From an uncultured Bacteroidales bacterium (GTDB taxonomy: Bacteria; Bacteroidota; Bacteroidia; Bacteroidales; JAFGXI01), in the NCBI GenBank assembly GCA_947311115.1, contig CAMZKE010000078.1:33892-97891 (forward strand): a stretch of 64,000 nucleotides of DNA, given 5' to 3'. Below are positions 4,801 to 61,504 of the stretch, one piece after another. How positions within the stretch are numbered: the stretch's first letter is position 1; each line of letters begins with the position of its first letter. Position numbers and translations under genes: made by a program. The notes under the pieces were generated by a model. The model worked only from the letters and a program-made list of their open reading frames with translations, had not been told where the DNA came from and did not search any database.

Positions 4801-4810
4801 TAAAAATAAA

Positions 4811-12756: not shown

Positions 12757-13251
12757 ATGCGTGGCAAAAAGGAAATATACGATAAACTTAACGAGTTAAA
12801 TATAAAATTTGAGTACTACGAGCATCCTTCAATACCAACAATTGAACTTGCAAAAATTCATAAAAAAGATATTGATGCAACTCATTGCAAGAATGTTTTT
12901 TTACGAAACCACAAAGGTAAAAAGCATTATTTTGTGGTATTAGAACAAAGTAAAAATGTAAATATTCGTCAATTAGAATTAATGTTAAAGCAAGGAAAAT
13001 TAAGTTTTGCAAGTGATAAACGACTAACTAAATACCTAAATACAAAACAAGGAGCTGTATCGCCACTTGGCTTAATTTTCGATGAAGAAAATAATACAAC
13101 TTTATTTATTGATAAAGAGCTGGAAGGCGAGCAGAAGCTAAGTTTTCATCCTAATGTTGACTATGCAAGTTTAGTAATATCCTACGCCGATTTAATTAAG
13201 TATATCAAAAATAAAGGTATTAGCTATGAATTGCTGGATTTATCATTGTAA
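12757..13251 (+). CDS. YbaK/ProX-type aminoacyl-tRNA editing domain protein
   Basis: This 164-aa protein has HCKNVFLRNHKGKKHYFVVL and GAVSPLGL segments resembling trans-editing YbaK/prolyl-tRNA-synthetase-associated domains. Confidence 0.6.
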   Translation: MRGKKEIYDKLNELNIKFEYYEHPSIPTIELAKIHKKDIDATHCKNVFLRNHKGKKHYFVVLEQSKNVNIRQLELMLKQGKLSFASDKRLTKYLNTKQGAVSPLGLIFDEENNTTLFIDKELEGEQKLSFHPNVDYASLVISYADLIKYIKNKGISYELLDLSL

Positions 13252-26202: not shown

Positions 26203-27207
26203 ATGTCATTATTAGAAACTATTAAGGCAAATGCAAAACAATTAAACAAACGAATTGTTTTACCCGAAGGATTAGAAGAAAGAACCCTTAAAGCAGCAAA
26301 CGAAATAATAGCAGATGGAATTGCTGATATTATTTTAATTGGAAATCCTGAGCAAGTAAAAAGTAAAGCTTCTGAATTAGGATTAATAAACATTGAGAAA
26401 GCAGCTATTGTAAATCCAATTAAGCACGATAAAAAAGATGCTTATGCCGATTTAATGGTTGAACTACGAAAAAGTAAAGGCTTATCTAAAGACGAAGCTC
26501 TTAAATTATTAGAAAACCCTCTTTATTTAGCTACCTTAATGATAAAAGCAGGTGATGCTGACGGTGAGGTTGCCGGAGCTGAAAACGCAACTGGCGATGT
26601 GCTTCGTCCGGCATTTCAGTATGTAAAAACTTTACCTGGTATTTCAGTTGTATCAGGGGCATTTATAATGATTTTACCGGAAAAAGAATATGGCGAAAAC
26701 GGAATGTTAGTATTTGCCGATTGTGCTGTTCACCCTGACCCTGACGCAAAACAACTTGCCGAAATAGCTGTGGCTACAGCAAAAACAACTAAAGCAATTA
26801 CAGGAATGGAGTCAAAAGTTGCATTGCTAAGTTTTTCAACTAAAGGAAGTGCAAAACATGCAATGGTTGATAAGGTTGTAGAAGCAACAAAGCTGGCACA
26901 AGAAGCTGCTCCAGAATTTGATTTTGATGGCGATTTACAAGCTGATGCAGCAATAGTTGAAGCTGTGGGTAAAAAGAAAGCTCCTGATAGTAAAATTGCA
27001 GGAAAAGCTAATGTGTTGGTCTTCCCTGATTTACAGTCTGGAAATATATCGTATAAATTAGTGCAACGTATGGCTCATGCAGAAGCTATTGGTCCTGTTT
27101 TACAAGGAATGGCAGCACCAATAAATGATTTATCTAGAGGTTGTTCGGTTAGCGATATAGTTAATTTAGTTGCTATTACAGCAAATCAAGCATCAGGTAA
27201 TATGTAA
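26203..27207 (+). CDS. pta: Phosphate acetyltransferase (short form)
   Basis: At 334 aa, it has IVLPEG.EERTLKAA, a DAAIV-type segment, LVFPDLQSGNISYKLVQR and PINDLSRG, a PTA_PTB family signature with Pta-like spacing. Confidence 0.85.
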   Translation: MSLLETIKANAKQLNKRIVLPEGLEERTLKAANEIIADGIADIILIGNPEQVKSKASELGLINIEKAAIVNPIKHDKKDAYADLMVELRKSKGLSKDEALKLLENPLYLATLMIKAGDADGEVAGAENATGDVLRPAFQYVKTLPGISVVSGAFIMILPEKEYGENGMLVFADCAVHPDPDAKQLAEIAVATAKTTKAITGMESKVALLSFSTKGSAKHAMVDKVVEATKLAQEAAPEFDFDGDLQADAAIVEAVGKKKAPDSKIAGKANVLVFPDLQSGNISYKLVQRMAHAEAIGPVLQGMAAPINDLSRGCSVSDIVNLVAITANQASGNM

Positions 27208-27230
27208 TTAATAATTAAAAAATAATTAAA

Positions 27231-28199
27231 ATGAGTGATATAAAAATAGAACCAATATCGAATTATGCACTAAGCAAAGAAAATAGACCTAAAGCTGTTT
27301 TTTCAAAGGTAGGGATAGTTGGTTGTGGAACAGTAGGGCAAAACCTTGCCCGTATGATTAGTGCCAAAGGTATTGAGGTTGTATTTGTTGAAATTTCGGA
27401 AGAAAGAGTAGAAAATGCATACAAAAGAATTGATGAAGATTTAGACCGAATGATAGATCGTTGGGGTATGACATCGGGCGAAAAACGAGCCGTTATTTCT
27501 CGTATTGAGGGAACTACAGATTGTTCTAATTTGAAAGATTGCGAAATAGTTTTTGAAGCTATAAGGTCAAAGTCAAAAGTTGCCGAAACAGAATTAGTTC
27601 AGCAAGTATTTCAAAAGATAGAGAAGAATATTAGTAAAGATGCAATAATTGCAACAAACGCAACAATATTAGGAGTTACCGAACTAGCATCGGTATTAGC
27701 GTATCCGGAGCGAGCATTAGCTATTCATTTTTTACTTTCTGTACCCGATGCACCAGTTGTTGAGGTTACTACAGGTGTGAAAACATCGGATGAAACAATA
27801 CGTAAAGCTAATGTTTTTGTTAAAATGCTTGGCCGCCGTGTAATACCTGTTTTTGAATCTCCAGGTGGTATAAGTGCAAGGTTGGTTTCTCCATTAATTA
27901 ATGATGCTTGTCAAATGTACCTTGAAGGAGTTGGTACTCTTGATGACATTGATGATATGATGACAAAGGGCTTAGGTATGCGTTTCGGACCTTTTGCTAT
28001 AGCTGATAAAATTGGAGTAGATAAAATTTTATTATGGCTTGATGGCATGTATGAAGAATATGGAGATTTAAAATATAAAGCACATACATTACTTAAAACT
28101 AAGGTTAGAGCAAATCATCTTGGTCGTAAAACGCAAGAGGGCTTTTACAAATACGATGAACATGGAAGAAGAACTGATAGAGCAAAATGTTGTCAGTAA
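27231..28199 (+). CDS. 3-hydroxyacyl-CoA (3-hydroxybutyryl-CoA) dehydrogenase family protein
   Basis: The Rossmann motif is VGIVGCGTVGQNLA. The 3HCDH N- and C-terminal domain layout is present (EAIRSK...; PGGISARLVSPLINDACQMYLEGVG..DDIDDMMTKGLGMRFGPF). Confidence 0.7.
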   Translation: MSDIKIEPISNYALSKENRPKAVFSKVGIVGCGTVGQNLARMISAKGIEVVFVEISEERVENAYKRIDEDLDRMIDRWGMTSGEKRAVISRIEGTTDCSNLKDCEIVFEAIRSKSKVAETELVQQVFQKIEKNISKDAIIATNATILGVTELASVLAYPERALAIHFLLSVPDAPVVEVTTGVKTSDETIRKANVFVKMLGRRVIPVFESPGGISARLVSPLINDACQMYLEGVGTLDDIDDMMTKGLGMRFGPFAIADKIGVDKILLWLDGMYEEYGDLKYKAHTLLKTKVRANHLGRKTQEGFYKYDEHGRRTDRAKCCQ

Positions 28200-28221
28200 T
28201 AAATAAAAAAAATATAGCAAA

Positions 28222-29424
28222 ATGAATATATTAGTATTGAACTGTGGAAGTTCATCAATAAAATATCAACTTTTTGATATGACAACAAATGTTGTAAAAG
28301 CAAAAGGTTTAGTCGATAAAATTGGAATGAAAGGAGCTTCTCTAACAAACACAAGAGAAGATAACGATAAAGTAAAGCTTGAAGGCGAAATCATTGACCA
28401 TCAAATAGGTATAGAGTATGTGTTAGGTGTGTTAACCAGCGAAAAACATGGCAGTATTAAATCTATTGATGAAATAAATGCTGTTGGACACAGAGTAGTA
28501 CATGGTGCCGAAAAATTTAAATCAAGTGTGTTTATTGATGATGATGTAATATTTCAAATGGAAAAATGTGTTGAGTTGGCTCCGTTGCATAATCCACCAA
28601 ATTTAAAAGGTATTTATGCAATGAAACAACTGTTACCTGATGTACCTCAGTGTGGAGTTTTTGATACAGCTTTTCATCAAACTATGCCGGCACATTCATA
28701 TATGTACGCTTTACCTTATTCTCTTTATAAAAAGCATGGTGTTCGTCGTTACGGATTTCACGGAGCAAGTCACAGGTACGTTTCTAAACGAGCTTGCGAA
28801 ATATTAGGAGTCGATTATAATAAGCAAAAAATTATAACTTGTCATCTTGGAAACGGTGCGTCAATAGCTGCTATAGATAAAGGTAAATCGGTTGATACCT
28901 CAATGGGATTAACTCCTGTAGAAGGTTTAATGATGGGTACACGTGTTGGCGATGTTGATGCAGGTGCTTTAACTTTTATAATGAACAAAGAGGAAATAGG
29001 TTATAATCAACTTAATACAATGTTGAATAAACATAGTGGAGTTCTAGGCGTTTCGGGTGTATCATCTGATATGCGTGAAGTGGAAGAGGCTGCCGAAGCA
29101 GGAAATGAAAGAGCAGCATTATCGCTTGAAATGTATGCATACAGAGTTAAAAAATATATTGGCTCGTATGCTGCAATATTAGGAGGTGTTGATATTATTA
29201 TTTTTACAGGCGGTATAGGTGAAAATGCTTGTGAGTTAAGGGCTGATTGTGTTTCTGACTTAGCATTTATGGGAATTGATTTAGATAATAGTTTAAATGA
29301 TGGTGCCAGAAGTGTTGAGAAAATTATTAGTACAGACAGTTCAAAAACAAAAATAATGATTGTTCCAACAGATGAAGAGCTTGTTATTGCTCAGGATACA
29401 TTGGAAATAGTGAATAAAATGTAA
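28222..29424 (+). CDS. ackA: Acetate kinase
   Basis: The sequence reads ILVLNCGSSSIKYQLF...GHRVVHGAEKF...PLHNPPNL...FDTAFHQTMP...YGFHGASHRYV...HLGNGASI...GLTPVEGLMMGTRVGDVD...FTGGIGEN. Confidence 0.95.
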   Translation: MNILVLNCGSSSIKYQLFDMTTNVVKAKGLVDKIGMKGASLTNTREDNDKVKLEGEIIDHQIGIEYVLGVLTSEKHGSIKSIDEINAVGHRVVHGAEKFKSSVFIDDDVIFQMEKCVELAPLHNPPNLKGIYAMKQLLPDVPQCGVFDTAFHQTMPAHSYMYALPYSLYKKHGVRRYGFHGASHRYVSKRACEILGVDYNKQKIITCHLGNGASIAAIDKGKSVDTSMGLTPVEGLMMGTRVGDVDAGALTFIMNKEEIGYNQLNTMLNKHSGVLGVSGVSSDMREVEEAAEAGNERAALSLEMYAYRVKKYIGSYAAILGGVDIIIFTGGIGENACELRADCVSDLAFMGIDLDNSLNDGARSVEKIISTDSSKTKIMIVPTDEELVIAQDTLEIVNKM

Positions 29425-29432
29425 ATTTGTTG

Positions 29433-29468
29433 CTCAACTATAATACTTTATAGTTGGGCATTTTTTTA
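29433..29468 (+). terminator. Rho-independent terminator after ackA
   Basis: An 11-bp stem CTCAACTATAA / TTATAGTTGGG (one G.U pair) has loop TACT and is followed by CATTTTTTT. Confidence 0.7.
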
Positions 29469-29516
29469 TATAATAATTTAGACTTTACATCAAATAAAAA
29501 AATGGAAATAATTATG

Positions 29517-29524
29517 TAGTTTTG
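29517..29524 (+). promoter_or_regulatory. Candidate -7 promoter motif (TAGTTTTG) for ptb-buk
   Basis: Matches TAnnTTTG, 27 nt upstream of ATG 29551. Confidence 0.4.
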
Positions 29525-29550
29525 CAAAAAAAAAATAAACCTTTTCGTAT

Positions 29551-30450
29551 ATGGAATTAAATAAGCTATCTCAAATTATTGATAAAGCAAAAAATATAGA
29601 AACAAAAACTCTTGTTGTTGCTGCTGCAGAAGATTTACACGTTTTACAAGCCGTAAAAAAAGCTATCGAAGAAAATATAGTTAAAGCTATTTTAGTTGGC
29701 GATTCAAGTAAAATTGAAGAATTTGCAAAACAAATAAATTTTGACATTTCAAGTATTGAAGTTATACATGAGTTAGATGTTGTAAAATCCTGTAAAACAG
29801 CAGTAAATATTGTTAGGCAGGGTGGGGGTGATATACTTATGAAAGGACTTGTAAGTACTGGCGTTTTATTAAAAGCAGTATTAGATAAAGAGTCAGGTTT
29901 ACGAAAAGGAGGTTTGTTAAGTCATGTTGCATTATTTGAAACGGCTCATTATCATAAACTAATTGGAATTACTGATGCAGCAATGAATGTAGAGCCTACA
30001 GTAACCGAAAAAGCTCATATTATTGAAAATTCGGTTGAACTATTTAATCGTTTGGGTGTTGAAAAGCCAAAAGTGTCTGTTTTAGCTGCTGTTGAGCTTG
30101 TTAATCCTAAAATGCAAGCAACACTTGATGCTGCAACATTAACAACAATGAACAACAGAGGACAAATTAAAAATTGTATTGTTGATGGTCCTTTGGCATT
30201 AGATATTTCCGTTTCAAAAGAAGCTGCTGAACATAAAGGTATAGTTAGCGATGTAGCCGGCGATGCCGATTTATTATTAGCTCACGATATAAATGTAGGT
30301 AATGTACTTTATAAATCGTTAAACTTTTTAGGAGGAGCAAATTCTGCCGCATTAATAATGGGAGCACAAGCACCAATAGTATTAACATCAAGGTCTGATA
30401 ATGAAAAAAGCAAAATGCTTTCAATAGCATTAGCTGCAGCTTTAGATTGA
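29551..30450 (+). CDS. ptb: Phosphate butyryltransferase
   Basis: This 299-aa PTA_PTB family member (VVAAAEDLHVLQAVKKA, ILMKGLVST, DGPLALD, LLAHDINVGNVLYKSL) lies directly upstream of butyrate kinase. Confidence 0.8.
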   Translation: MELNKLSQIIDKAKNIETKTLVVAAAEDLHVLQAVKKAIEENIVKAILVGDSSKIEEFAKQINFDISSIEVIHELDVVKSCKTAVNIVRQGGGDILMKGLVSTGVLLKAVLDKESGLRKGGLLSHVALFETAHYHKLIGITDAAMNVEPTVTEKAHIIENSVELFNRLGVEKPKVSVLAAVELVNPKMQATLDAATLTTMNNRGQIKNCIVDGPLALDISVSKEAAEHKGIVSDVAGDADLLLAHDINVGNVLYKSLNFLGGANSAALIMGAQAPIVLTSRSDNEKSKMLSIALAAALD

Positions 30451-30527
30451 TTTTCTTCGTATGTTAATGAATTTGCTAATATTAAATACTTATCTTATTG
30501 ATAGATAAATATAAACAAAATAAAATA

Positions 30528-31634
30528 ATGGAAGAGTTTTTACAGCATAATATAGACGAAGAAATTAGGATAATTGCAATTAATCCGGGGTCTACAACCA
30601 CAAAAATTGCAGTTTATCAAAATATGAATCCCGTATATTTAAAGACAATTAGGCATAGTATAGAAGAGCTAAAAGAATTTGAATCAATTATTGACCAATT
30701 AGCTTACAGAAAGCAAATTATATGTAAAGAATTGCGTGATGCAGATATTAAATTAGATTTGGTTCGTGCTGTTGTTGGTCGTGGAGGATTGGTTAAGCCC
30801 ATAGAATCAGGTGTTTATGAAGTAAATGAAGCAATGATTCGTGATTTAACAAATAGCCCATTAGGAGAGCATGCAAGTAACTTAGGTGGTTTAATTGCTT
30901 CAGATATGGCTGAAACACTGCCAAATGCACGTGCGTTTATTGCCGACCCTGTTGTTGTTGATGAATTATCTGATATAGCACGTGTTTCCGGTCATCCTGC
31001 ATTTAGGCGAATTTCTATTTTTCATGCACTAAACCAAAAGGCTGTAGCTCGTCAACATGCAAAATCAATATTAAAACACTATGAAGATTTAAACTTAATA
31101 GTTATACATCTTGGCGGAGGAATTACTGTTGGAGCACATCAAAAAGGAAAGGTTATTGATGTTAATAATGGCTTAGATGGTGAAGGGCCTTTTTCTCCTG
31201 AAAGAAGCGGTACATTACCTGTTGGGCAGTTAGTTTCTATGTGCTTTAGTGGTAATTACACAAAGTCAAAAATTAAGAAAATGATTAAAGGCGAAGGTGG
31301 ACTTGTTGCGTATCTCGGAACAAATTCAGCCTACGAAATAGAGCAAAAAGCTGCTGCAGGAGACGATAAAGCTATGTTTTATTACGAAGCAATGGCATAT
31401 CAAGTATCAAAACAAATCGGTTCAATGTGTCCGGTATTAAAAGGAAATGTTGATGGAATAATAATTACAGGAGGAATTGCCCATAGCAAATTTTTTGTAA
31501 ATATGGTTATTGAAAGAGTCTACAGAATTGCTCCTGTACATGTTTACCCAGGCGAAGATGAAATGAAGGCGTTGGTTTCTAATGGTTTAATGGCTCTTAA
31601 AGGTGAAATTAAAATTAAAATTTACGATAAGTAA
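30528..31634 (+). CDS. buk: Butyrate kinase
   Basis: The motifs are IIAINPGSTTTKIAVY, HASNLGG, HLGGGITVGAH, PERSGTLP and ITGGIAHS. I prefer ATG 30528 over the track's TTG at 30498. Confidence 0.9.
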   Translation: MEEFLQHNIDEEIRIIAINPGSTTTKIAVYQNMNPVYLKTIRHSIEELKEFESIIDQLAYRKQIICKELRDADIKLDLVRAVVGRGGLVKPIESGVYEVNEAMIRDLTNSPLGEHASNLGGLIASDMAETLPNARAFIADPVVVDELSDIARVSGHPAFRRISIFHALNQKAVARQHAKSILKHYEDLNLIVIHLGGGITVGAHQKGKVIDVNNGLDGEGPFSPERSGTLPVGQLVSMCFSGNYTKSKIKKMIKGEGGLVAYLGTNSAYEIEQKAAAGDDKAMFYYEAMAYQVSKQIGSMCPVLKGNVDGIIITGGIAHSKFFVNMVIERVYRIAPVHVYPGEDEMKALVSNGLMALKGEIKIKIYDK

Positions 31635-40038: not shown

Positions 40039-40303
40039 AATATTGTAGTAAAGTAGATCGTGAATACAATTACAATATACAGATAATCATTTTTTACACT
40101 TATAACCCTCACAAAGGGTTTACAAGGCAGACACACACTAAAAATAATATAATTCAATAATATTACGTATAGTTTATTTGTAACCCTAATTATTAATATT
40201 GATTAACCCAAATTATTCATAGAAATTTAAAATTTAACAATTAAATCCATAATAACTAACTGATTAACCCAAAATGCAAACACCCCAATTTGGTTAATTA
40301 ATT

Positions 40304-40406
40304 TTATGCATTTTTCTTTTCCTGATACTTTGTTGCAAACCATTTGCAGTATTCATATACAGCTTCATGGTTCTACGATTTGTCTAAGAAAAACGTATGA
40401 ATAATG
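40304..40406 (-). repeat. Left copy of a 102/103-nt inverted repeat pair (partner at 50057..50158)
   Basis: The reverse complement aligns with 50057-50158. By hand alignment, 90 of 102 positions are identical, with one 1-nt indel. It contains a 45-nt core hairpin (40332-40376) of the form GTAGAACCAT...ATGGTTTGCAAC. It starts 23 nt after the gatD stop codon. Confidence 0.85.
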
Positions 40407-40428
40407 CGGGCTATAGAAGTTTCCTAAA

Positions 40429-41814
40429 TTATTTTCTCACATCTTTAATAAAATTTTCAACTTCAGGTACACCACCTTGAAGCACAATATATCCGTTATA
40501 AGGTTCTCGTTCAGTAATTTCGTCATTAACAGGAGTTAACATCATTTCTTTTACTTTAACAGGGTCTTTAGTTTGTCCCATTACCCAACCAAGTTTAACC
40601 CAAGCAACTTCAGGCAACATATTACCAAGCGGAGTTATTCCCATTGCCATAAGGTCGCGACCGGTATCGTAAACAAACATATGTACATATCCCCAAAGAG
40701 TTTGAAGGGTCATAAATAGTAACACTCCTTTTTCTTTAGCTCGTTTAATTGCCGGGTATAAATCTTTATTTACGTGACCTAAACCTGTACCAACAATAAT
40801 AATACCTTCGTAACCATTATCAATCATAGAATCTAATGAATCAGGTTGCATACCCGGCCAAAAGTAAAGCATTCCTATCTTTTTAGAGAAAAAAGGTTTT
40901 ATATCTACATTTTTATCTTTTCTACGAGGCTTATAGTCTTTTTTTATAGGAGTTTGAGAGTTACGTGTAATCATTGCAAGTGGTGTATCTCCAATAGTAC
41001 GAAAAGTAGAACGATACGACGAGTGCATTTTTCTTACACGAGTACCCTTGTGTAGCAATCCGTAATCGTCAGAAGTTGGGCCAAACATACATACCATAAC
41101 TTCTGCTATATCGCCATTACCTGCGGCATTCATAGCATGCATAAGGTTAAGTGCTGCATCAGAGCTAGGTCTATCTGACGAACGTTGCGACCCAACAAGC
41201 ACAATAGGTATAGGCGAGTTTTGCACCATAAATGTTAATGCTGCAGCAGTATGATGCAAAGTATCGGTTCCGTGTCCAATAACAATACCATCAATACCGT
41301 TTTCAATTTCTTTACCAATAGCTTTTGCAAGAGCAATATATTGGTCTGGCCCCATATTCTCAGAAAATACAGCAAAAACTTTTTCTGTATCTAAATTACA
41401 GATATCAGCTAACTCAGGCACAGCACCGTATAATTCGCCGGGTGAAAATGCAGGAATTACAGCACCTGTACGATAATCTAATCGTGAGGCTATTGTTCCG
41501 CCTGTTCCAAAAAGTTTTACACTCGGCAAACCCGGTGTATTAGGAAATTCTTGTTCAGGAATTGCGTAATTAGCTTTTTTGTAGCCTGTTTCTACCATTG
41601 TATTAATAGTAGTAACGTCAACTCCAATATTGTAGCCTGTAATTACTTTTACAACAATATGTAAATCGTCGTCGTTTTCCGAACGAGGTAAAATAGTTCC
41701 TTTAAATATACCACGAGTTGTGTCTATTTCTGCTTGACCCCAAACTCTTACATTATATTTCTTTAAAAGCTTTAAAGCTTCTCCTTTGTATCCTTGAAAA
41801 AAATCAGCATTCAT
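40429..41814 (-). CDS. gatD: Glutamyl-tRNA(Gln) amidotransferase subunit D (archaeal-type, asparaginase fold)
   Basis: The GatD-specific N-terminal domain reads DDLHIVVKVITGYNIGVDV. The asparaginase-type motifs are FGTGGTIASRLDYRTGAV, GHGTDTLHHTAAAL, SQRSSDRPSSDAALN, KMHSSYRSTF and VGTGLGH. The C-terminal motif is LPEVAWVKLGWVMGQT. The gene lies 6 nt downstream of gatE. Confidence 0.9.
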   Translation of the reverse strand: MNADFFQGYKGEALKLLKKYNVRVWGQAEIDTTRGIFKGTILPRSENDDDLHIVVKVITGYNIGVDVTTINTMVETGYKKANYAIPEQEFPNTPGLPSVKLFGTGGTIASRLDYRTGAVIPAFSPGELYGAVPELADICNLDTEKVFAVFSENMGPDQYIALAKAIGKEIENGIDGIVIGHGTDTLHHTAAALTFMVQNSPIPIVLVGSQRSSDRPSSDAALNLMHAMNAAGNGDIAEVMVCMFGPTSDDYGLLHKGTRVRKMHSSYRSTFRTIGDTPLAMITRNSQTPIKKDYKPRRKDKNVDIKPFFSKKIGMLYFWPGMQPDSLDSMIDNGYEGIIIVGTGLGHVNKDLYPAIKRAKEKGVLLFMTLQTLWGYVHMFVYDTGRDLMAMGITPLGNMLPEVAWVKLGWVMGQTKDPVKVKEMMLTPVNDEITEREPYNGYIVLQGGVPEVENFIKDVRK

Positions 41815-41820
41815 CTTTTT

Positions 41821-43794
41821 TTAATTTTTTAGTTTTGAAATAGTTTTTCTTAACTCTTTTAAATCAATATTTCCAATAGCCTGTTTTCGTAATTCACCCA
41901 TTACCCAGTTTATTATTGCATCTTCATGTTTATTTTTATTAATTACTTTAAATTTTTCTAACAGAAAACCTACTGGTGCTATAAGTTCATCTTTTGTACG
42001 CTTTTTAAATTTAACATCTTCTAAAACTGATGTTAATTGCATGCGTGGATGCTGATATATCATTGGTAAAATTTCTTCGGCTATATTTAGGTTTAATTTC
42101 TCATCTTTAATAAACTTAAACAAATCGTAAATTACATTATAATTAAACTCGGCTCCAGCAGTGTAATGACCTTCTACATATTTTAACTTATGACCTAAAA
42201 ATGTGCCTATAAATTTTGCATTAATTTTTAAGTCTTTTACAATTTTTTCAATTAATGGCACCAAATTGTTTTTAAGAATGTATGTGAAAGTATCTTCAGG
42301 TATTTTCCATTTTCTGAGCTGTGCAAAACGGTCAACAACCTCAACAGGCATTCTCTTTGCTAATTTATCAATATATTCGTTTGCCAATGGTATTGGCGCT
42401 GAATCGGTATCAGGATACATTCTGTCGGCACCAGGCAATACTCTTTCAAAAATAGTACTTCCGTCGTGGAAAGATTTACGAGTTTCTTCAGGTACACCTT
42501 CAAAAGCCATTTGGCAACGTTCCTCTATAACTTCAAGAGCAGTTTGCATATCTTCTTCGGGTCCCCAAATTATTATTTGAGCATCGTTATCGCCTGCACC
42601 AAGCATAGGTGCAATTATTTCTAAATCTATATCTGTTATTATTGGTTCAAAATCTTCGGTATGAACCATGTTTGGTTTTTCAAGACAAGCTATTACTTTT
42701 AAACGGTCTGCAATTTCATTAGCAAATATTTTTGTTGGCTGTGTAAAATGTGACATTATACCCTTAAATTCAGGTAAATTTATTGCAATTAGTTTAAATC
42801 CATTATCTTTAGCATCTTTAATAGGTTCGTAAGTAATATTGAACATATCAAAATCGAGATATTCGTAATTCATTTTCCAATTTTTTGGATTTGAAACACG
42901 TTTGTTTAATTCTTTTTTTATAGCAAGTAATGCCCATTGTCTGTATGATTCAACATGAGTAAGCTCTGGAATCCATTTTGTATGTGCTACTCCTTTTATT
43001 TCAATACGAGTTCCGCCTTTGCAACTTACATTTACATCTTGACGACCAGCTCCCTGGCCTGTACGCACTTTGTCAGTACTACGGTTTAAGAAACGTATAT
43101 AATCGCAAGCCTCTTTAACTTCATCAGGGTTTACCATTTCCGGATATGTAACTGTTTCAATTAATGGCATTCCTAAACGGTCAGTCTTATATACTCGTTT
43201 GTGTCCAATATCAGATATTTCTCTAGCACTATCTTCTTCAATACTAAGTTGAATAAGTTTTACTTTTTTGTTTTTTAATGGTATTTCGCCTTCAACACCT
43301 AAAATAGCTGTACGCTGAAATCCGGCAGGAATACTACCATCTAAATATTGTTTACGAGTAATATGTACTTCGCCTACAATATTAAATTTACATAAAAGTG
43401 AAATTTCTAAAGCATTTTCTAAAGCTTCTCTATCCATAGGAAATGGCGGAGTATCATCAATTTCGTATGTACAAGCATTCTTGTTATTTATTCTATATGT
43501 TATTTCTTTTCGAGTCCTAAACTCCATTAATGCTGTACCATCGTACTCGCCAAGTTCGGAAAGTGTTGGCCGCATGTGGCGAATTAACTCAGCATCGTAA
43601 TCATCGTGCTTATTAAAAACTCCTGCCGGACAATGACAAAAAAGTTTCTTTTTTGTTAAAATTTGCTGATGGACCTCCAGCCCGGACATAAAACCAATTC
43701 TGTCGTAATCTTTTTGTGTAGCTTCCTTACGAGATACGTAGCCAATAGCCTTTTTGGTTTTCTCGTAGTTTTGTTTAGGATCAAACTTATTCAT
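41821..43794 (-). CDS. gatE: Glutamyl-tRNA(Gln) amidotransferase subunit E (archaeal-type)
   Basis: This 657-aa protein has the GatB/E core (GLEVHQQI, KLFCHCP, MRPTLSELGEYD, YEIDDTPPFP, SIPAGFQRTAILG, SIEEDSAREI, GAGRQDVNVS). It also has the long insertion and C-terminal extension typical of GatE rather than the roughly 480-aa GatB. It is paired with gatD. Confidence 0.88.
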   Translation of the reverse strand: MNKFDPKQNYEKTKKAIGYVSRKEATQKDYDRIGFMSGLEVHQQILTKKKLFCHCPAGVFNKHDDYDAELIRHMRPTLSELGEYDGTALMEFRTRKEITYRINNKNACTYEIDDTPPFPMDREALENALEISLLCKFNIVGEVHITRKQYLDGSIPAGFQRTAILGVEGEIPLKNKKVKLIQLSIEEDSAREISDIGHKRVYKTDRLGMPLIETVTYPEMVNPDEVKEACDYIRFLNRSTDKVRTGQGAGRQDVNVSCKGGTRIEIKGVAHTKWIPELTHVESYRQWALLAIKKELNKRVSNPKNWKMNYEYLDFDMFNITYEPIKDAKDNGFKLIAINLPEFKGIMSHFTQPTKIFANEIADRLKVIACLEKPNMVHTEDFEPIITDIDLEIIAPMLGAGDNDAQIIIWGPEEDMQTALEVIEERCQMAFEGVPEETRKSFHDGSTIFERVLPGADRMYPDTDSAPIPLANEYIDKLAKRMPVEVVDRFAQLRKWKIPEDTFTYILKNNLVPLIEKIVKDLKINAKFIGTFLGHKLKYVEGHYTAGAEFNYNVIYDLFKFIKDEKLNLNIAEEILPMIYQHPRMQLTSVLEDVKFKKRTKDELIAPVGFLLEKFKVINKNKHEDAIINWVMGELRKQAIGNIDLKELRKTISKLKN

Positions 43795-43932
43795 ACTCTA
43801 TACTTCTACTTTATAAAAAATATAAGCTATAAAAGTAATGTGTATTTTTTATTTTTTAGAATTTTTGACTAATAAAAAATAAATTGATTAATTATTAGTT
43901 GACTTTTAGTGTTTTAAAAACTGTAAATAGTA

Positions 43933-46005
43933 TTAATGAGTGTAAATATTATTAGAATTTCTGTATCCGGAATTATTAGAATACCAATCAGTGTAAATAC
44001 TTCCTCCACTTTCAGCCCAATTTCCAAATTTTAAATACGCATCAATAACCGATGCTTTTTCTTTTGGATAATCAAAAGTTTTTGGAATATTTATAGCCCA
44101 AGGTAAATTTCGAGTTGTTTTATAATACCTGTTAGATGGTGGATTACTATCATCATTTCCTGTTCCTAATAAGTTTTCATCGGCTAAATCAGTTGGAGTC
44201 ATATCTGCTAAATGTACTTCTTTACCTCTGTCTAAATCAATAATAATAAATGGATTGTATGGCGGTGTGCCTAAAATATCACTTCTTATAGGGGTGTTAA
44301 ATTTAATTACTAGCTTTATTGTATCAGGTTGTACGTAAGTACTTCCAATTACTGTATTTATTCCTGTGCCACCTCCAGGATGTGTTAATACATTAAACGC
44401 ATTATCAAAGACTACAATTACAGCGTTTGTTTGTCCACTTTCAGTGCCATTAGAAGAAATATTTATATACGACTCTTGAATATTTTGCCCTTTTATTGAG
44501 CTTATTAAACTTGGCGATATAGGTAGCTCAAATGCAAAACCGTTTTTATAGCTTGCACCAATTGCTTTAACTATAAATTTCACATCCATCTCTGTTATTA
44601 GATTTTCAGGATTTGAAATGCTATTAAATTGATAATCAATAACCAAATCGTTATAATCATAATCTCCTGTATATGGCCATAAATCTTCAAAAGCTAATGT
44701 TCCAAAAGTTTCGCTATTTGGAAAAGCTGTATTAAATGCTTTTGTGTTGTCGTCAGGATAATCATCGGCATTATCATTTATTCCATCACCATCGGTATCT
44801 TGACTATCAGAGTCAACAGTTTCTATGTTATCGGTAGTAATAGCTGTACTAGGGCTTGCTGTTGCATAAAATACAGCATCATTAAAATCATTATCGCACC
44901 AACTTTCTCTGTTTAAATCTTCGAAACCAATTAAAACTAAATTACGCTGATTATCATAAAGTAAAACATTATGCTGCTTTAAACTAACATCGGTCTCGGG
45001 ATTAAATTCAGGAATAGAATAATAATTATATTTTCCATCTCCTACATTTGTACCATTCCAAGCATCAGACACTAAAAACCAGCCAATAACTGTTCCTGAT
45101 GGAAATTCATTAACAAAGGATTGGGTATTTTCATCATAATATTTTAATTGAACTTTATCGCCTGTTTGTAATTCGCCTCCCGAATTTAAGTACGATGTGT
45201 TAGGAAATGCAATTGTGTAATTATTTATATCATCAACCGAAGTTGGTGGATTATCTTGTTGATATGTGAAATAACCCAAAGTATTACGATACCCGGCACC
45301 TTCATGCACAAATGTTATCCACACTTCTGCATTTTCCTGTAAAACTAGATTTGTTTCTACTCCAGCTAAAAATTCAGGGTGAGTTACAGGTATTCCACCG
45401 GATACATTTTCAGGTAACGATGTGTTAATATCATCTAACAAACCCTGTTCAACTATATCAGAAATAGGATATAAATAATCGGGTAATCCTTGAGAATTCC
45501 AAGCCCCTAATGTTAAATATCCATTTTGCTTTACTTTATGTATTGATTTGTTTGTATTTACAGTATTTATACCTCCAAATGTATAATTTATATTAGATGC
45601 TGTTGAAAATTCAATATTTGTTTCTACCCCTAAATATCTTGGTGATATATAAATTTTTTCTAAGCTTTTTGGAACAAAAATAGTACTAAATAACTGTCCA
45701 TTATTATCGGTTACTCCTGAATATAATAGGTTTGCTTTTTTATTTTGTTGAGCTTCAAACGATGAATTTGCATCATAAATATCAATTCTAACATTGTTTA
45801 AAGCAGAACCATCGTTTGCTTTAGCAAAAAGTTGTAAATCAATATTTTTAATTAATTTATAGTCGAAATACTTATCAATTTTTAAATCATTTAATGCTTG
45901 AGGTTTTATTGTAGCAGGTATATCCTCGTTAATCTCATCTTTATTACACGATGAGAATATAAACAATATAATAGCAGAAATTATAGTTAAATACTTTATA
46001 TACAT
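43933..46005 (-). CDS. LruC-domain (DUF4842) surface lipoprotein with DUF4114-like and thrombospondin-type Ca-binding segments
   Basis: The lipobox is FIFSSCNKDE. GFEDLNRESWCDNDFNDAVFY is DUF4114-like. DSDSQDTDGDGINDNADDYPDD is a TSP3-like calcium-binding segment. AFEDLWPYTGDYDYNDLVIDY is the LruC/DUF4842 hallmark. Confidence 0.7.
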   Translation of the reverse strand: MYIKYLTIISAIILFIFSSCNKDEINEDIPATIKPQALNDLKIDKYFDYKLIKNIDLQLFAKANDGSALNNVRIDIYDANSSFEAQQNKKANLLYSGVTDNNGQLFSTIFVPKSLEKIYISPRYLGVETNIEFSTASNINYTFGGINTVNTNKSIHKVKQNGYLTLGAWNSQGLPDYLYPISDIVEQGLLDDINTSLPENVSGGIPVTHPEFLAGVETNLVLQENAEVWITFVHEGAGYRNTLGYFTYQQDNPPTSVDDINNYTIAFPNTSYLNSGGELQTGDKVQLKYYDENTQSFVNEFPSGTVIGWFLVSDAWNGTNVGDGKYNYYSIPEFNPETDVSLKQHNVLLYDNQRNLVLIGFEDLNRESWCDNDFNDAVFYATASPSTAITTDNIETVDSDSQDTDGDGINDNADDYPDDNTKAFNTAFPNSETFGTLAFEDLWPYTGDYDYNDLVIDYQFNSISNPENLITEMDVKFIVKAIGASYKNGFAFELPISPSLISSIKGQNIQESYINISSNGTESGQTNAVIVVFDNAFNVLTHPGGGTGINTVIGSTYVQPDTIKLVIKFNTPIRSDILGTPPYNPFIIIDLDRGKEVHLADMTPTDLADENLLGTGNDDSNPPSNRYYKTTRNLPWAINIPKTFDYPKEKASVIDAYLKFGNWAESGGSIYTDWYSNNSGYRNSNNIYTH

Positions 46006-46184: not shown

Positions 46185-46400
46185 TTACTCCGATATAATA
46201 CTAATATTATTCTCGTTTAACAATTTAATTGTTTTGCTACAAATATTATTATCTTTAATTATTAAACTTATTTGCACATCTGGTTTTACTGTTTTTATTG
46301 CTTTAGATTGTTCAATAATTTTTAAACCATCTTTAACAATAATACGACTTTTTCGCTTTTTTACAATAGCTATTTCATTTTTTGATAATTGCAACAATTT
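46185..46400 (-). CDS. Possible small hypothetical protein (about 70 aa); its 5' end is obscured by repeat copy C
   Basis: The open frame reads LLQLSKNEIAIVKKRKSRIIVKDGLKIIEQSKAIKTVKPDVQISLIIKDNNICSKTIKLLNENNISIISE. The only ATG (46457) lies inside the repeat element, so the real start, if any, would be a TTG near 46395. I cannot assign a family. Confidence 0.25.
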   Translation of the reverse strand, partial: KLLQLSKNEIAIVKKRKSRIIVKDGLKIIEQSKAIKTVKPDVQISLIIKDNNICSKTIKLLNENNISIISE

Positions 46401-46497
46401 AATCTGTTTGGGTTTAATTCCCCGTCCCTTGGGACGTATAAAAGAATAGTATTCCAAAACGATACCTCATCCGCTTGCGGCGAGGAGATTCATTTTT
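46401..46497 (+). repeat. Copy C of the two-hairpin repeat family
   Basis: The first 43 nt are identical to copy A. The second hairpin is CCTCATCCGCTTGCGGCGAGG (a CUUG loop closed by CCG/CGG), followed by AGATTCATTTTT. Confidence 0.8.
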
Positions 46498-56140: not shown

Positions 56141-57169
56141 TTATTCGCAAAACAAAACTAACTTTTTAGCTGTTTCTTTTGGGTTATCTTCAGTTAAATT
56201 AAGCTCAGAAACTGTTTTAAGTTCACGTTTAAGTAAACCGTGATTATAAGCTTTGTCATAATAGGTTAAGCTTAGGTTGACAGCATAAGTCATATCGCCA
56301 TTTTGTACCGATTCTATTGCAAGTTTAGTTTCGTTTGGTCCTAGTCGTTTTTTTATACGATTTAGATGATAAATTAATACCTCTTTGTCAGCATAAGTAT
56401 AATCTTTAACCAAACGCTTTATACGAACTTCTTTTGGAACATTAATTTTAATAACAGGAGCTTGTCGCATCTGCAAGAATATCTCGTCAGGAATATGATT
56501 TAAACCAATAGCTTTACTTTCGTCTTCAATCCAAATACGCTTATGTAAATTTAATTTTGACCAAGCTTTGTATAAGTTGTTTTCAAATTGTTCGGTACTA
56601 TGTTGTTTCTTTTCGCCAATAGCACCAAAAGCAGAGCCTTTATGATGTGCAATTCCTTCTAAATCTATAATTTGTTCGCCAAGTTTTTTGAGTTCCTTTA
56701 AAATATCGGTTTTACCACTACCGGTAGAGCCACTTAAAATGGTAATATTAGCTTGCTTTGCAAGTTCATTTTTAATGAATTGTCGGTAAGCTTTATACCC
56801 ACCTTCAAGAATTTCTACATTTAAACCTGCTGTTTTGAAAAGCCACGCCATACTACCACTACGCATTCCTCCACGCCAACAATGAATAAGTATTTTGTTG
56901 TTTTTTGCTATTTTTTTAGCTTTTACAACAAACTTAGCCATTTTAGGACCAACAATATCTAAACCTGCAAGAATAGCTTTGTCTTTGTTTTGTTTTTTAT
57001 AAATTGTACCAACTTTGGCACGTTCGTCATTATCGAAAAGTGGTAAATTAATAGCTCCGGGAATATGAGCTTGAGCAAACTCACCCGGCGACCTAACATC
57101 AATAATAGGTATATCAATCCCTTTTTCAAGAAATATTTTTGGTTCTATACTTGGGATTTCTATTTTCAT
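56141..57169 (-). CDS. mnmH: tRNA 2-selenouridine synthase
   Basis: The rhodanese domain reads IIDVRSPGEFAQAHIPGAINLPL...HCWRGGMRS (active-site Cys). A P-loop follows (SGSTGSGKT). The length is 342 aa, typical of MnmH/SelU. Confidence 0.85.
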   Translation of the reverse strand: MKIEIPSIEPKIFLEKGIDIPIIDVRSPGEFAQAHIPGAINLPLFDNDERAKVGTIYKKQNKDKAILAGLDIVGPKMAKFVVKAKKIAKNNKILIHCWRGGMRSGSMAWLFKTAGLNVEILEGGYKAYRQFIKNELAKQANITILSGSTGSGKTDILKELKKLGEQIIDLEGIAHHKGSAFGAIGEKKQHSTEQFENNLYKAWSKLNLHKRIWIEDESKAIGLNHIPDEIFLQMRQAPVIKINVPKEVRIKRLVKDYTYADKEVLIYHLNRIKKRLGPNETKLAIESVQNGDMTYAVNLSLTYYDKAYNHGLLKRELKTVSELNLTEDNPKETAKKLVLFCE

Positions 57170-57272: not shown

Positions 57273-59315
57273 CTACTTAATCTCGCCTCCATTAATTATT
57301 GTTTTTTCAGGACTCATAAATGCAAGCGAACCATCAGCATTTTCTGCCATCAGTATCATTCCTTGCGACTCAACACCTTTAAGTTTACGAGGTTCTAAGT
57401 TTACTAAGATACTTACTTGTTTACCAATAATATCCTCTGGTTTGTAATATTCTGCAATACCCGAGACAACTGTACGAACATCTATTCCTGTATCAACAGT
57501 GATTTTTAATAGCTTTTTAGTTTTTGCAAGTTTTTCTGCTTCGGTAATTGTACCAACTCTAATATCAAGTTTTGTAAAATCGTCGAAAACTATATTCTCT
57601 TTTTGAGGTTTAGCAACAGCTTGCTCAATTTCGTTAGCTTTTTTTGTTTCAAGTAATTTATTTACTTGTGCTTCAACTTCAATATCCTCAATTTTAGAGA
57701 ATAGGAGAGTAGGTTTGTTAATTAAATGACCTTGCTTTAATAAATTACACTCACCAATTATACTCCAGTCGGTTTCTGAAATATTGAGCATGTCACGTAT
57801 TTTTTTGGCTGTAAAAGGTAAAAATGGTTCAAAAACTTGCGATAACGAAGCTGATAACTGTAAAGTCATATACATAATATTTTTAACTCTTTCAGGATTT
57901 GTTTTTATCTGCTTCCAAGGTTCACTATCAGCAAGATATTTATTCCCCAAACGAGCAATATTCATTGCATTTTTTAAAGCTTCTCTAAAATGATATGTTT
58001 CAATATTTTTATCTATAGTTTCTTTAAGTTCGCTTACTTGTTCTTTTAACTCTCTGTCTGCAGCTCTAAATTCTTGAGGCTCTGGTTCCGGTACTTCGCC
58101 AGCATAATATTTATTTGTTAATACAACAACTCTATTAATAAAGTTACCTAGAATTGCCACAAGTTCGTTGTTATTTCGGTCTTGAAAATCTTTCCAAGTA
58201 AAATCGTTATCCTTTGTTTCCGGTGCGTTTGCAGTTAAAGTATATCGTAAAACATCTTGCTTGTTAGGGAAATCTTTTAAATATTCGTGTAGCCAAACTG
58301 CCCAATTTCTTGATGTTGAAATTTTATCGCCTTCAAGGTTAAGAAACTCGTTAGCAGGTACATTATCAGGTAAAATATAGCTTCCTTCTGCTTTAAGCAT
58401 GCTTGGAAAAACTATACAGTGAAAAACAATATTATCTTTTCCAATAAAATGAATGAGTTTTGTGTCTTCGTCTTTCCAATATTTTTCCCAATCAGGAGTT
58501 AGGTCTTTTGTTGCCGAAATATAGCCTATAGGAGCATCGAACCAAACGTAAAGTACTTTTCCTTCGGCACCTTTAACAGGAACAGGTACACCCCAATCTA
58601 AATCACGACTTACAGCACGAGGCTGTAAACCCATATCAAACCACGATTTGCATTGTCCGTAAACATTTGGTTTCCATTCTTTATGTTCTTCTAAAATCCA
58701 TTTTTCTAAAAATGGCTGATATTTGTCTAATGGTAAAAACCAGTGTTTTGTTTCTTTAAGTGTTGGTGCATTGCCGGTTATAGCTGATTTTGGATTAATT
58801 AAATCGGTAGCGTTTAATGATGTTCCGCAAGCTTCGCATTGGTCGCCATAAGCTTTTTCGTTTCCGCAATGTGGGCAAGTACCTGTAATGTATCGGTCTG
58901 CTAAATATTGATTAGCTTCTTTATCGTAAAGTTGATTAGAGGTTTTTTCAATAAACTCGCCTTTTTCGTAAAGATTTGTAAAAAACTCTGACGATGTTTT
59001 TGCGTGAGTTTTAGAACTTGTTCGTGAATAAATATCGAAAGAAATTCCAAATTCTTTAAACGAATCTTTTATTATTTTGTTGTATCTATCAACAATATCT
59101 TTCGGTGTAACACCCTCTTTTTGAGCTTTTAGCGTTATTGGGACTCCGTGTTCGTCTGAACCACATACGTAAATAACATCTTTTTTTTGTAAACGTAAGT
59201 ATCTAACATAAATATCAGCAGGAATGTAAACTCCGGCTAAATGTCCAATATGTACTGGTCCGTTGGCATAAGGTAATGCAGCTGTAACGGTATATCTTTT
59301 AAATTCTTTTGACAT
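57273..59315 (-). CDS. metG: Methionine--tRNA ligase with a C-terminal tRNA-binding (Trbp111/EMAP-like) domain
   Basis: The motifs are [14 protein letters not shown] (HIGH), zinc knuckles CPHCG...CEACG, KISTSR (KMSKS-like), and a C-terminal DIRVGTI...VVSGI...[12 protein letters not shown]. Confidence 0.95.
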
Positions 59316-59404: not shown

Positions 59405-60535
59405 CTATAAATTAGGATTTACAATATTTCCGATAAATAATATCGAGTTTGTTTCGGTATCTTTAATTATAACAATAAAAGGACGGTTAACTTTAAATTC
59501 TTTTATTGGATGCGGTGCAACACTTGTTGTACGCATTAATACCGCTGTTACAGCAGCTGCTTCTGTTCCTTTTTCGTTTACGCCAATATATGTTTTGTGT
59601 ATTACATTCGATATAAATAGCTTTTGCTTACTTATTCCGCTATAATCTGCCGTTGGTGTAAATGCCTCTTTCATTCCCAATTCTGATAGTGCATCTTTTA
59701 ATTTAAACGATGATTCAAACTCAAATTTTGGCATATAGAACTTAATTTTTTCTTTTTTTAAGCCGTTTAATACGTCGGTGTAATTATTTATATTAAAGTT
59801 ACTTATATTTGTTTTAGGCATAATAACAATCATTGATAATTTATCGCCTTTATATGGTAACTCGATAGCTTGTAAGCCTTTATTTTCAAAATATTTATAC
59901 TTTTCTTTATGATACATCATGTTTACTGTAACAACTTTGTTTTCTACAGTAGTAAATTTATCTTTTTTTGTTGATTTTGTAATAAATGGATATTTCCATT
60001 CTGCATTAAAATAAACCGCATTTGTTAATATCAATTTAGAGCTTGCTACATCGTTATCATCAACAATATTTTTAATTTTATTATTAGTATTATCGCTTGC
60101 CCATTTGTTTATTTTCTTAGCATTTGTTTTTGGATAAACAGCTGATTCAAAATATTTTTTATTTCTTCTTTTAAAGAAATACTTTAACTTTAAATTTTTA
60201 TCAATCCAAAGTGCATTTGCAATATCTAAAGTTAAGTTTGAGTCGTTATAAGTTTTCATTGTTTTGTTTAATAACTTAAAACTTTTGGCTGTATTTTTAT
60301 TAAAATACATTGTTTTTTCCATTACAGTTTTTGTGTTGTTTTTTGCACCCAAGTATGTCATAGCAAGTGCCGAACTTATACTATAAGGCGATATAAATAC
60401 ATTTTCGCTTGTAGATATTAATGTTTTTCTAATATCGAATGCAAATTTATTATTGTTATTTGCTTGTTCGTTGTTTTGAGCAAGTAATGCTGTTGCCATA
60501 AAACTTAGTACTAATGTATATATAAGTGTTTTCAT
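59405..60535 (-). CDS. Serpin-family protease inhibitor
   Basis: The signal peptide MKTLIYTLVLSFMATALLAQ begins at ATG 60535. Serpin motifs include FAFDIRK, NVFISPYSISSALAMTYLGAKNNT, NAVYFNAEW, a hinge/RCL region (GTEAAAVTAVLM) and FKVNRPF. Confidence 0.85.
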   Translation of the reverse strand: MKTLIYTLVLSFMATALLAQNNEQANNNNKFAFDIRKTLISTSENVFISPYSISSALAMTYLGAKNNTKTVMEKTMYFNKNTAKSFKLLNKTMKTYNDSNLTLDIANALWIDKNLKLKYFFKRRNKKYFESAVYPKTNAKKINKWASDNTNNKIKNIVDDNDVASSKLILTNAVYFNAEWKYPFITKSTKKDKFTTVENKVVTVNMMYHKEKYKYFENKGLQAIELPYKGDKLSMIVIMPKTNISNFNINNYTDVLNGLKKEKIKFYMPKFEFESSFKLKDALSELGMKEAFTPTADYSGISKQKLFISNVIHKTYIGVNEKGTEAAAVTAVLMRTTSVAPHPIKEFKVNRPFIVIIKDTETNSILFIGNIVNPNL

Positions 60536-60577
60536 TAAATTATTTTTTTGTAAAGATATTCTATTTAGTAATACAAA

Positions 60578-60610
60578 AAAAGCTTGCAAATTAATTATTT
60601 ACAAGCTTTT
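60578..60610 (-). terminator. Hairpin plus T-run after the lipoprotein gene
   Basis: The minus strand reads AAAAGCTTG (15-nt loop) CAAGCTTTT followed by T residues. It lies inside the ORF-track N-terminal extension of the serpin ORF, which argues for the internal serpin start. Confidence 0.5.
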
Positions 60611-61419: not shown

Positions 61420-61504
61420 TATATTTAGTTTTAAATTTCAATAAAAGTACATAAATTTTATAATTAATCAATAAAATTTTATATTTACACCCAAAATATT
61501 GAAA

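Follow-up and report, generated by a model that had tools for sequence, protein, structure and literature searches.

We analysed a 64-kb window of a contig from an uncultured Bacteroidales bacterium (the window is the whole stretch of DNA studied, and all positions given are window positions). On its minus strand two adjoining genes encode both subunits of GatDE, an amidotransferase that has been called an 'archaeal signature protein' (PMC2330236) and said to occur 'exclusively in archaea' (PMC2811023), and which reviews up to 2022 keep as archaea-only. The genes and the DNA between and before them are:

41821..43794, minus strand: gatE, tRNA-dependent kinase/transamidase subunit, 657 aa, ATG start
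41815..41820, minus strand: spacer from the gatE stop to the gatD start, 6 nt
40429..41814, minus strand: gatD, asparaginase-type glutaminase subunit, 461 aa, ATG start
43795..43932, minus strand: A+T-rich stretch of 138 nt upstream of gatE, presumed to hold the promoter

The 6-nt gap implies that gatE and gatD form one operon and are co-transcribed. A sigma-70-type scan upstream of gatE returned 18 sites against 17.9 expected from shuffling, Bacteroidota promoters lying outside the scope of that scan, and in the operon region a terminator scan gave no excess over shuffled sequence and an Rfam search gave no match. A non-coding gap of 390 nt (40039-40428) separates gatD from the convergent kdsC; it contains no open reading frame (ORF) of at least 80 aa, no Rfam match and no terminator-like hairpin.

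Both proteins were assigned with NCBIfam equivalog models. GatD scored 489 bits on TIGR02153 (cut-off 324) and 488.9 bits on NF003217 (cut-off 310), and its Pfam architecture is GatD_N (PF18195, 36.5 bits, cut-off 25.7) followed by Asparaginase (PF00710) and Asparaginase_C (PF17763). Its sequence matches in the PDB are 2d6f_A (2.4e-111, aligned over residues 8-437) and 1zq1_A (9e-111), and the match to the crystallised proteins reaches 375 bits for GatD and 285 bits for GatE. Catalysis by GatD relies on a Thr nucleophile plus a Thr-Lys-Asp triad (PMC2330236); these residues, T107 and T183-D184-K262 in the window protein, are invariant in 29 GatD sequences that include both crystallised ones, in an alignment with 102 invariant columns overall. 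GatD also resembles the type I L-asparaginases (Thermococcus kodakarensis, PDB 5OT0), matching TIGR00519 over residues 96-434 with 361 bits and sharing the catalytic residues, but it differs from them in its additional N-terminal PF18195 domain, in its higher score on the GatD equivalogs and in being encoded directly 3' of gatE.

GatE scored 401.9 bits on TIGR00134 (cut-off 319.55) and 476.6 bits on NF003107 (cut-off 456), the small margin of 20 bits on the latter reflecting divergence from the archaeal seed sequences. The GatB models gave 52-127 bits against cut-offs of 314-680 (best, 126.7 against 338). The PDB sequence matches are 2d6f_C (1e-83) and 1zq1_C (1.2e-82). In Pfam, GatB_N is matched by residues 37-475, that is, by 439 residues for a 277-position model, a stretching that indicates a large insertion, and an alignment against five GatB sequences placed GatE-specific insertions at aa 66-103 and ~300-421. 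Four parts of gatE need to be distinguished:

43711..43794, minus strand: N-terminal extension, aa 1-28, found in the Bacteroidota-type subclade (described below) only
43042..43068, minus strand: first-base-pair loop, aa 243-251, VRTGQGAGR, positioned by homology to archaeal GatE
42532..42897, minus strand: AspRS-like insertion domain, aa ~300-421, gapped in 5/5 GatB sequences, with weak Foldseek matches to AspRS
41824..42381, minus strand: helical and YqeY-like tail, aa ~472-657, modelled confidently as all-helical, the expected binder of the tRNA D-loop

An AlphaFold2 model of GatE, built from a 75-sequence alignment (mean pLDDT 90.1, pTM 0.87), found as its best Foldseek matches the GatE of Pyrococcus abyssi (1zq1_C, E 1e-43, TMt 0.83) and that of M. 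thermautotrophicus (2d6f). TMt was 0.79-0.83 to GatE structures versus 0.54-0.76 to GatB, whose chains matched at E ~1e-20. In M. thermautotrophicus GatE, mutating H15, E157 or E184 kills both kinase and transamidase activity (PMC2330236); the equivalent Mg2+ ligands H42, E186 and E213 are present in the window protein and are conserved in 133-135 of 135 GatE sequences, and at all 62 columns with at least 95% conservation in that set the window GatE carries the consensus residue. The tail is recognised weakly as GatB_Yqey (PF02637, residues 515-654, 27.7 bits, cut-off 27), a family without a precomputed match in most relatives of the Bacteroidota-type subclade; within it, conservation of G633 and G641 is 90% or more. 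The N-terminal extension (25-28 aa) is missing from other bacterial-type GatE, from archaeal GatE and from GatB; its pattern FDP..NY..T...GYV.RK.ATQ.DYDR is kept throughout the 21-sequence subclade, and aa 6-17 form a confident helix in the model.

Compared with archaeal GatDE (M. thermautotrophicus, 2D6F; P. abyssi, 1ZQ1), the window pair has the same subunits, the same domain order, the catalytic Thr and Thr-Asp-Lys residues and the His-Glu-Glu Mg site, and the GatE proteins share cradle, AspRS-like insertion, helical and YqeY-like tail domains. The two systems differ in that the window proteins have a bacterial host, are 30-35% (GatE) and 43-45% (GatD) identical to the archaeal ones, belong to a bacterial clan with cradle signatures of its own (e.g. 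RHMRPTLSELGEYDGTALMEF, RKQYLDGSIP and EEDsCRE), and have in GatE an altered loop and tail besides the extension. Bacterial GatCAB is more distant: its GatB (PDB 3IP4, 3H0L, 3AL0) is a paralogue of GatE with a common cradle fold and Mg site, but it is without the insertions of GatE at aa 66-103 and ~300-421, and GatCAB uses an amidase-family GatA together with GatC where GatDE uses the asparaginase-type GatD.

The gatDE genes are intact, strongly constrained and compositionally native in the host chromosome. Their G+C content is 0.33 (gatE) and 0.37 (gatD), with 0.30 for the window, and G+C at third codon positions (GC3) is 0.21 and 0.22, within the 0.14-0.23 of 14 other window genes. Nonsynonymous to synonymous rate ratios (dN/dS, Nei-Gojobori) were 0.047 (gatE) and 0.034 (gatD) in comparison with a relative of 93-97% identity (locus L032), and 0.067 and 0.060 against one with 83-90% identity (L001). 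An earlier note on this DNA had described two neighbouring minus-strand genes 6 nt apart encoding full-length GatE and GatD, and both the coordinates and the equivalog scores agree with it. The archaeal GatD/GatE profile check it had proposed placed both subunits above their equivalog cut-offs. Its GatD motifs (TGGTIAS, HGTDT, DRPSSDA and GTGLGH) are all in the translation, with a GatD-specific N-terminal domain that Pfam also reports; its account of the 657-aa GatE as a GatB/E core plus a large insertion is borne out by Pfam and by the GatB alignment, and the published catalytic residues are all present in both proteins. It had also judged the genes as AT-rich as their neighbours, and any transfer hence old, with which the GC3 values concur. 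Finally, the bacterial and Bacteroidota surroundings that it described were identified again: PorP/SprF, a T9SS sorting domain, KdsC, an AmiA/B/C-type amidase, LptD and AsmA, to which PorE-like OmpA proteins and a GldK/J-like protein can be added.

The pair is far from isolated among bacteria. In a search of 5.8 billion proteins, the best 120 GatE relatives were 66-95% identical to the window protein, and the named ones were all Bacteroidota, Bacteroidales or Marinilabiliales, their NCBI or JGI label being already GatE. HMMER against 1.84 billion cluster representatives gave 605 matches at E <= 1e-30. Three tiers can be told apart: the Bacteroidota-type subclade, which includes the window; a diverse bacterial set, 42-51% identical to the window GatE; and a large group at 30-38% identity that includes both archaeal proteins of the PDB. 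Names returned by the tier-2 profile search were all bacterial (Calditrichia, KSB1, Aminicenantes, Latescibacteria, Krumholzibacteria, Clostridiales and Ca. Desulfaltia), and those of the tier-3 search were all archaeal. More distant bacterial members, at about 40-55%, come from Calditrichia, KSB1, Aminicenantes, Latescibacteria, Krumholzibacteria, Cloacimonadota and Desulfobacterota. Archaeal identities peak at 30-38% (GatE) and 43-45% (GatD), whereas bacterial relatives reach 95% and 97%. An archaea-only distribution is thus not what we found, since the host contig is Bacteroidota and the named members of the clan are all bacterial.

Scanning a single genome for each GTDB species with patterns that detect close relatives only gave 30 loci, mostly from Bacteroidales metagenome-assembled genomes (MAGs), the remainder being labelled Aminicenantes, Cloacimonadota, Deltaproteobacteria, Eubacteriales or Labilibaculum. 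In 27 of the 30, gatD directly follows gatE (in L011 the gatD start falls at the contig end), and one more locus, L010, has its contig edge just past gatE. Two Bacteroidales MAGs carry an RNase H-like gene after gatE, in the place of gatD (L004, 7215-7847; L006, 2237-2935), and in that lineage gatD must be either unlinked or lost. The gatE-gatD order recurs in five further loci (L031-L035), and bacterial genes, compared with the archaeal ones, are almost always joined in this way as an operon. In four tier-2 loci, one of them a 5.98-Mb single contig, the pair lies beside genes for DnaA, L28, PNPase, SecA, RecO, FtsEX and Fpg. Its surroundings are always bacterial housekeeping genes, and over 35 independent assemblies show it in such a bacterial setting. 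Adjacency of gatE and gatD is the only conserved synteny in 35 related loci, other neighbour families being common to at most four; even in L032, whose GatE is 93% identical to that of the window, the flanks differ except for one small ORF. No GatB or asparaginase paralogue was found in 530 kb of related loci. Mobile elements were also searched, and no bacterial-type GatE occurred among 72,556 plasmid and 50,697 phage records, where the matches were to gatB and, once, to a haloarchaeal replicon.

No cultured isolate is among the named relatives, which is probably why experimental work on bacterial GatDE is lacking. We found no report of a bacterial GatDE in a library confined to open-access papers and bioRxiv, a scope within which one may have been overlooked, and the Caldithrix genome paper is silent on amidotransferases; NCBI and JGI already name the genes of the bacterial clan GatD and GatE. 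The window pair is one ordinary, vertically maintained member of a large bacterial GatDE clan that is annotated yet apparently undiscussed. Operons of the Bacteroidota type (GatD 70-74% identical to the window) also sit on contigs assigned to other phyla, namely Aminicenantes (L007, L012), Eubacteriales (L015, L019) and Deltaproteobacteria (L025), which reflects either inter-phylum transfer among anaerobes or mis-binning. Aminicenantes labels are found in two groups, the Bacteroidota-type subclade (L007, L012) and the wider bacterial one.

The bacterial proteins depart from the archaeal ones notably in the elements that contact the tRNA. GatDE's discrimination elements are reported to be the first-base-pair loop and a GXXAXGX motif in the tail, the loop being short and basic and standing where GatB has the 3-10 turn that recognises U1-A72, which GatE is without (PMC2811023). 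The loop consensus is V-K-R-G-L/I-G-T-I-R in archaeal GatE, V-R-T-G-I-G-A-G-R in the Bacteroidota-type subclade and V-R-R/T-G-x-G-A-A/T-R in other bacterial-type sequences. In place of the archaeal tail pattern G..A.G.LMG...RGK.DGK, the wider bacterial set has (A)RLR(Y/F)..G...RGR.PG and the subclade has (A)..NW.MG...A.GN(I/M), the window GatE having EDAIINW-VMG. A GXXAXGX-type motif is absent from 20/20 full-length members of the subclade and 27/29 other bacterial members, an absence that is weak evidence because the strict pattern occurs in only 17 of 75 archaeal tails. Neither archaeal-type element (KRG(L/I)GTI loop, GXXAXGX tail) is thus present in the window GatE, and both changes are clan-wide. 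They bear on specificity, not on catalysis. Archaeal GatDE reads the A1-U72 pair of its tRNA(Gln), a pair that is U1-A72 in bacterial tRNA(Gln) (PMC2330236), and the remodelled loop and tail are plausibly, judging from sequence, an adaptation of the enzyme to this bacterial substrate.

Since both reported discrimination elements are altered across the clan, the same changes could also mean that bacterial GatDE has a changed or broadened specificity, acting for example on Asp-tRNA(Asn) too, and may have replaced GatCAB. Bacterial tRNA(Gln) and tRNA(Asn) both carry U1-A72 (PMC2330236, PMC4206432), and a retuned enzyme could admit both. Nevertheless, the window GatE keeps the AspRS-like insertion domain, which modelling proposes to exclude non-discriminating AspRS (PMC2330236), and the loss of a tail motif that most archaeal sequences do not match strictly counts for little. 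We regard this explanation as unlikely, though it is the one that survives best among the alternatives to a Gln-tRNA(Gln)-forming enzyme of archaeal origin.

As to that origin, GatE trees were computed by neighbour-joining on corrected p-distances (133-135 full-length sequences, ~610 columns, 200 bootstraps). The Bacteroidota-type subclade was monophyletic in 200/200 replicates, and the split between all bacterial-type and all archaeal GatE was likewise recovered in 200/200. Heimdallarchaeota, Thorarchaeota and Odinarchaeota are the labels of the archaeal sequences closest to the bacterial clan: the clan joins a Heimdallarchaeota-labelled cluster in 137/200 replicates, and the clan together with nine Asgard-containing sequences separates from the 73 other archaeal ones in 182/200. 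GatE of the Heimdall type (the Heimdallarchaeota TET29438.1 cluster) is a mosaic of bacterial-type and archaeal-type signatures. With the bacteria it shares RHMRPTLSELGEYD, RKQYLDGSIPTGFQRT and EEDSCRE, but it keeps the archaeal loop KVKRGIGTIRQD and the tail GQRALGKLMG...RGKIDGK, at ~37% identity to the bacterial clan. An outgroup of five bacterial GatB sequences, taken from plasmid and chromid records, joined archaeal sequences in 193/200 replicates; in 7/200 it attached at or inside the bacterial clan, and it gave a root between bacteria and all archaea in 5/200. Within the archaea its position was split between two sites (96 versus 97 of 200), and owing to this instability we use only the negative statement that the root lies elsewhere than on the bacterial branch.

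These trees point to one ancient transfer from an archaeon to a bacterium, followed by diversification and some exchange between phyla, as the most economical reading, in which the direction and the number of transfers are what we infer. If there was a transfer of GatDE, it is not a recent one into this genome. The phylogeny with GatB that the earlier note had called for is thus provided for GatE, with a bacterial clan that is monophyletic and set apart from archaeal GatE. Tree, composition and context favour what that note had said of archaeal ancestry, of any transfer being old and of a Bacteroidota chromosome, which is genuine. The rarity and the archaeal-island character that it implied did not hold up, the genes belonging to a widespread bacterial family with bacterial identities up to 95% and archaeal ones of 30-38%. 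The note had opposed to a transfer the possibility of a widespread, vertically inherited bacterial family, and this is largely what the many phyla and the monophyly of the clan reveal; the archaeal ancestry nonetheless stands.

A vertical descent of GatDE from LUCA (last universal common ancestor), with loss in most bacteria and without an archaeal import, is a less probable explanation again, and one we consider improbable. It agrees with the idea of Sheppard and Soll, known to us as summarised in PMC9499178, that LUCA had both amidotransferases. The bacterial clan is deep and diverse, with a mean within-clan distance comparable to the archaeal one, it spans many phyla, and the midpoint root lies between the bacterial and archaeal clans. 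The rarity of a bacterial-versus-archaeal root under the GatB outgroup and the placement of that outgroup with archaeal sequences argue the other way, as do the grouping of the clan with Asgard-like sequences apart from the other archaea, the mosaic signatures of the Heimdall type, the patchy spread over bacterial phyla and the Aminicenantes labels in two groups.

Taking these results together, we think it likely that the operon encodes a functional GatDE making Gln-tRNA(Gln), and that it comes from an old bacterial clan of archaeal origin; the substrate and pathway role are ascribed by analogy with the archaeal enzyme. GatDE would be a heterodimeric, probably alpha2-beta2, tRNA-dependent amidotransferase. 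A non-discriminating GluRS would make Glu-tRNA(Gln), and GatE would bind the mischarged tRNA and phosphorylate its gamma-carboxyl at the Mg2+ site (H42/E186/E213). GatD, through T107 and T183-D184-K262, would free ammonia from Gln or Asn, and an inter-subunit tunnel would carry it to GatE, where the intermediate would be amidated to Gln-tRNA(Gln). The clan would go back to a single ancient acquisition from an archaeon, its nearest surviving relatives being Asgard-like sequences, and later inheritance and exchange among anaerobic FCB-group and other bacteria would have been accompanied by a remodelling of the tRNA contacts, presumably for bacterial tRNA(Gln).

Several points weigh against this reading. 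The loop and tail differ from those of archaeal GatE, so that its specificity may deviate from that of the archaeal enzyme. GlnRS is typical of cultured Bacteroidetes, some of which possess AsnRS and GatCAB in addition (PMC4206432), so that GatDE could be redundant in the host; its functional role hinges on the host lacking GlnRS and/or GatCAB. No glnS, gltX, gatCAB or tRNA-Gln gene was found in the 64-kb window, which is uninformative at such a sampling depth, and in the 530 kb of related loci we saw no glnS, gltX, gatCAB, tRNA-Gln or other pathway partner, the sampling here too being too shallow to inform. Regarding the origin, the trees are distance-based, only three of the nine Asgard-like sequences carry organism names, and the root is weakly determined because the GatB distances (about 2.1-2.3) are near saturation.

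The GlnRS usual in Bacteroidota, which would make GatDE dispensable, and a tail that barely exceeds its Pfam threshold might also suggest that the pair now serves an amidation other than that of tRNA, or that it is a remnant in decay. Against this, all catalytic and near-universal residues are kept, dN/dS is 0.03-0.07, the model is confident in the helical and tail domains that bind tRNA, and the operon is conserved across phyla, which together make such an explanation very improbable. An assembly chimera, archaeal contamination or a recent archaeal transfer, for which only the archaeal ancestry of the family speaks, deserves practically no credence, in view of a composition and GC3 that match the flanks, the number of independent assemblies and the 5.98-Mb single contig, the low archaeal and high bacterial identities of both subunits, and the absence of bacterial-type GatE from the plasmid and phage records searched.

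A more far-reaching version of the functional GatDE of archaeal origin favoured above can be offered only tentatively. GatDE may be the sole tRNA-dependent amidotransferase of these uncultured, anaerobic lineages, having displaced GatCAB and/or GlnRS after a single ancient acquisition from an Asgard-related archaeon and having been retuned in its first-base-pair loop and tail domain from the A1-U72 of archaeal tRNA(Gln) to bacterial tRNAs with U1-A72, possibly with a dual Gln/Asn role; we would not expect this to be the case, but we hold it to be somewhat less doubtful than a GatDE of altered specificity as described above.

The surroundings of the operon offer some further observations. The small ORF common to the window (46185-46457, minus strand) and L032 (3987-4253, plus strand) encodes 88-90 aa, is 76% identical between the two and has no Pfam match. 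In L032 it lies 111 nt upstream of gatE, while the remaining 34 loci gave no match to it. In the window it is separated from gatE by a gene for a 690-aa LruC-domain lipoprotein (43933-46005), a sign that something was inserted or rearranged here. We considered this ORF as a GatC-like helper and rejected it, given its presence in one close relative only, the lack of a Pfam match and the intervening LruC-domain gene. L032 also has an IS200-type Y1 transposase gene (11243-11518), ~3.4 kb downstream of gatD.

Elsewhere, the window also encodes functions of housekeeping and fermentation, namely MetRS, MnmH, BioA, SucC and pta-ackA-ptb-buk. Two of these concern tRNA: the gene for MnmH, tRNA 2-selenouridine synthase (56141-57169, minus strand; 386 bits, cut-off 241), adjoins that for methionyl-tRNA synthetase (57273-59315, minus strand; 871 bits), and it implies that selenium is used in tRNA modification in the host. 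A free-standing aminoacyl-tRNA editing-domain protein of 164 aa (Pfam tRNA_edit, YbaK/ProX type, 78.6 bits), a further factor of translation fidelity, is encoded at 12757-13251 on the plus strand. The fermentation cluster at 26203-31634 (plus strand), with pta, a 3-hydroxybutyryl-CoA dehydrogenase-like gene, ackA, ptb and buk, indicates an anaerobic acetate/butyrate producer, which fits the sediment and digester origin of the relatives. A cobalamin riboswitch (RF00174, 62623-62804, plus strand; 74.7 bits against a gathering threshold of 31.5) follows a Peptidase_C26 or class-I glutamine amidotransferase-like gene (61499-62569) and presumably controls a gene past 62.8 kb. At 59405-60589 (minus strand) lies a gene for a bacterial serpin (Pfam Serpin, 342 bits), a family uncommon in bacteria. 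Finally, two paralogue pairs occur on the plus strand within 14 kb, interspersed with PorP/SprF and AsmA genes: PorE/CHU_0125-like OmpA-domain proteins (2866-4800 and 10582-12645) and SiaA-like PP2C phosphatase-domain proteins (4775-6727 and 14718-16244).

A large, deep and purely bacterial GatDE clan contradicts the view of GatDE as an archaeal signature. The clan is at the same time a natural experiment, in which an amidotransferase shaped by co-evolution with the tRNA(Gln) of archaea (A1-U72) becomes adapted to the tRNAs of bacteria. It is relevant to the question of whether GatDE goes back to LUCA or has moved between domains, and it points to Asgard-like archaea as its nearest relatives. 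The clan merits a study of its own, directed at its relationship with Asgard-type sequences, its remodelled tRNA recognition and its possible displacement of GatCAB or GlnRS.

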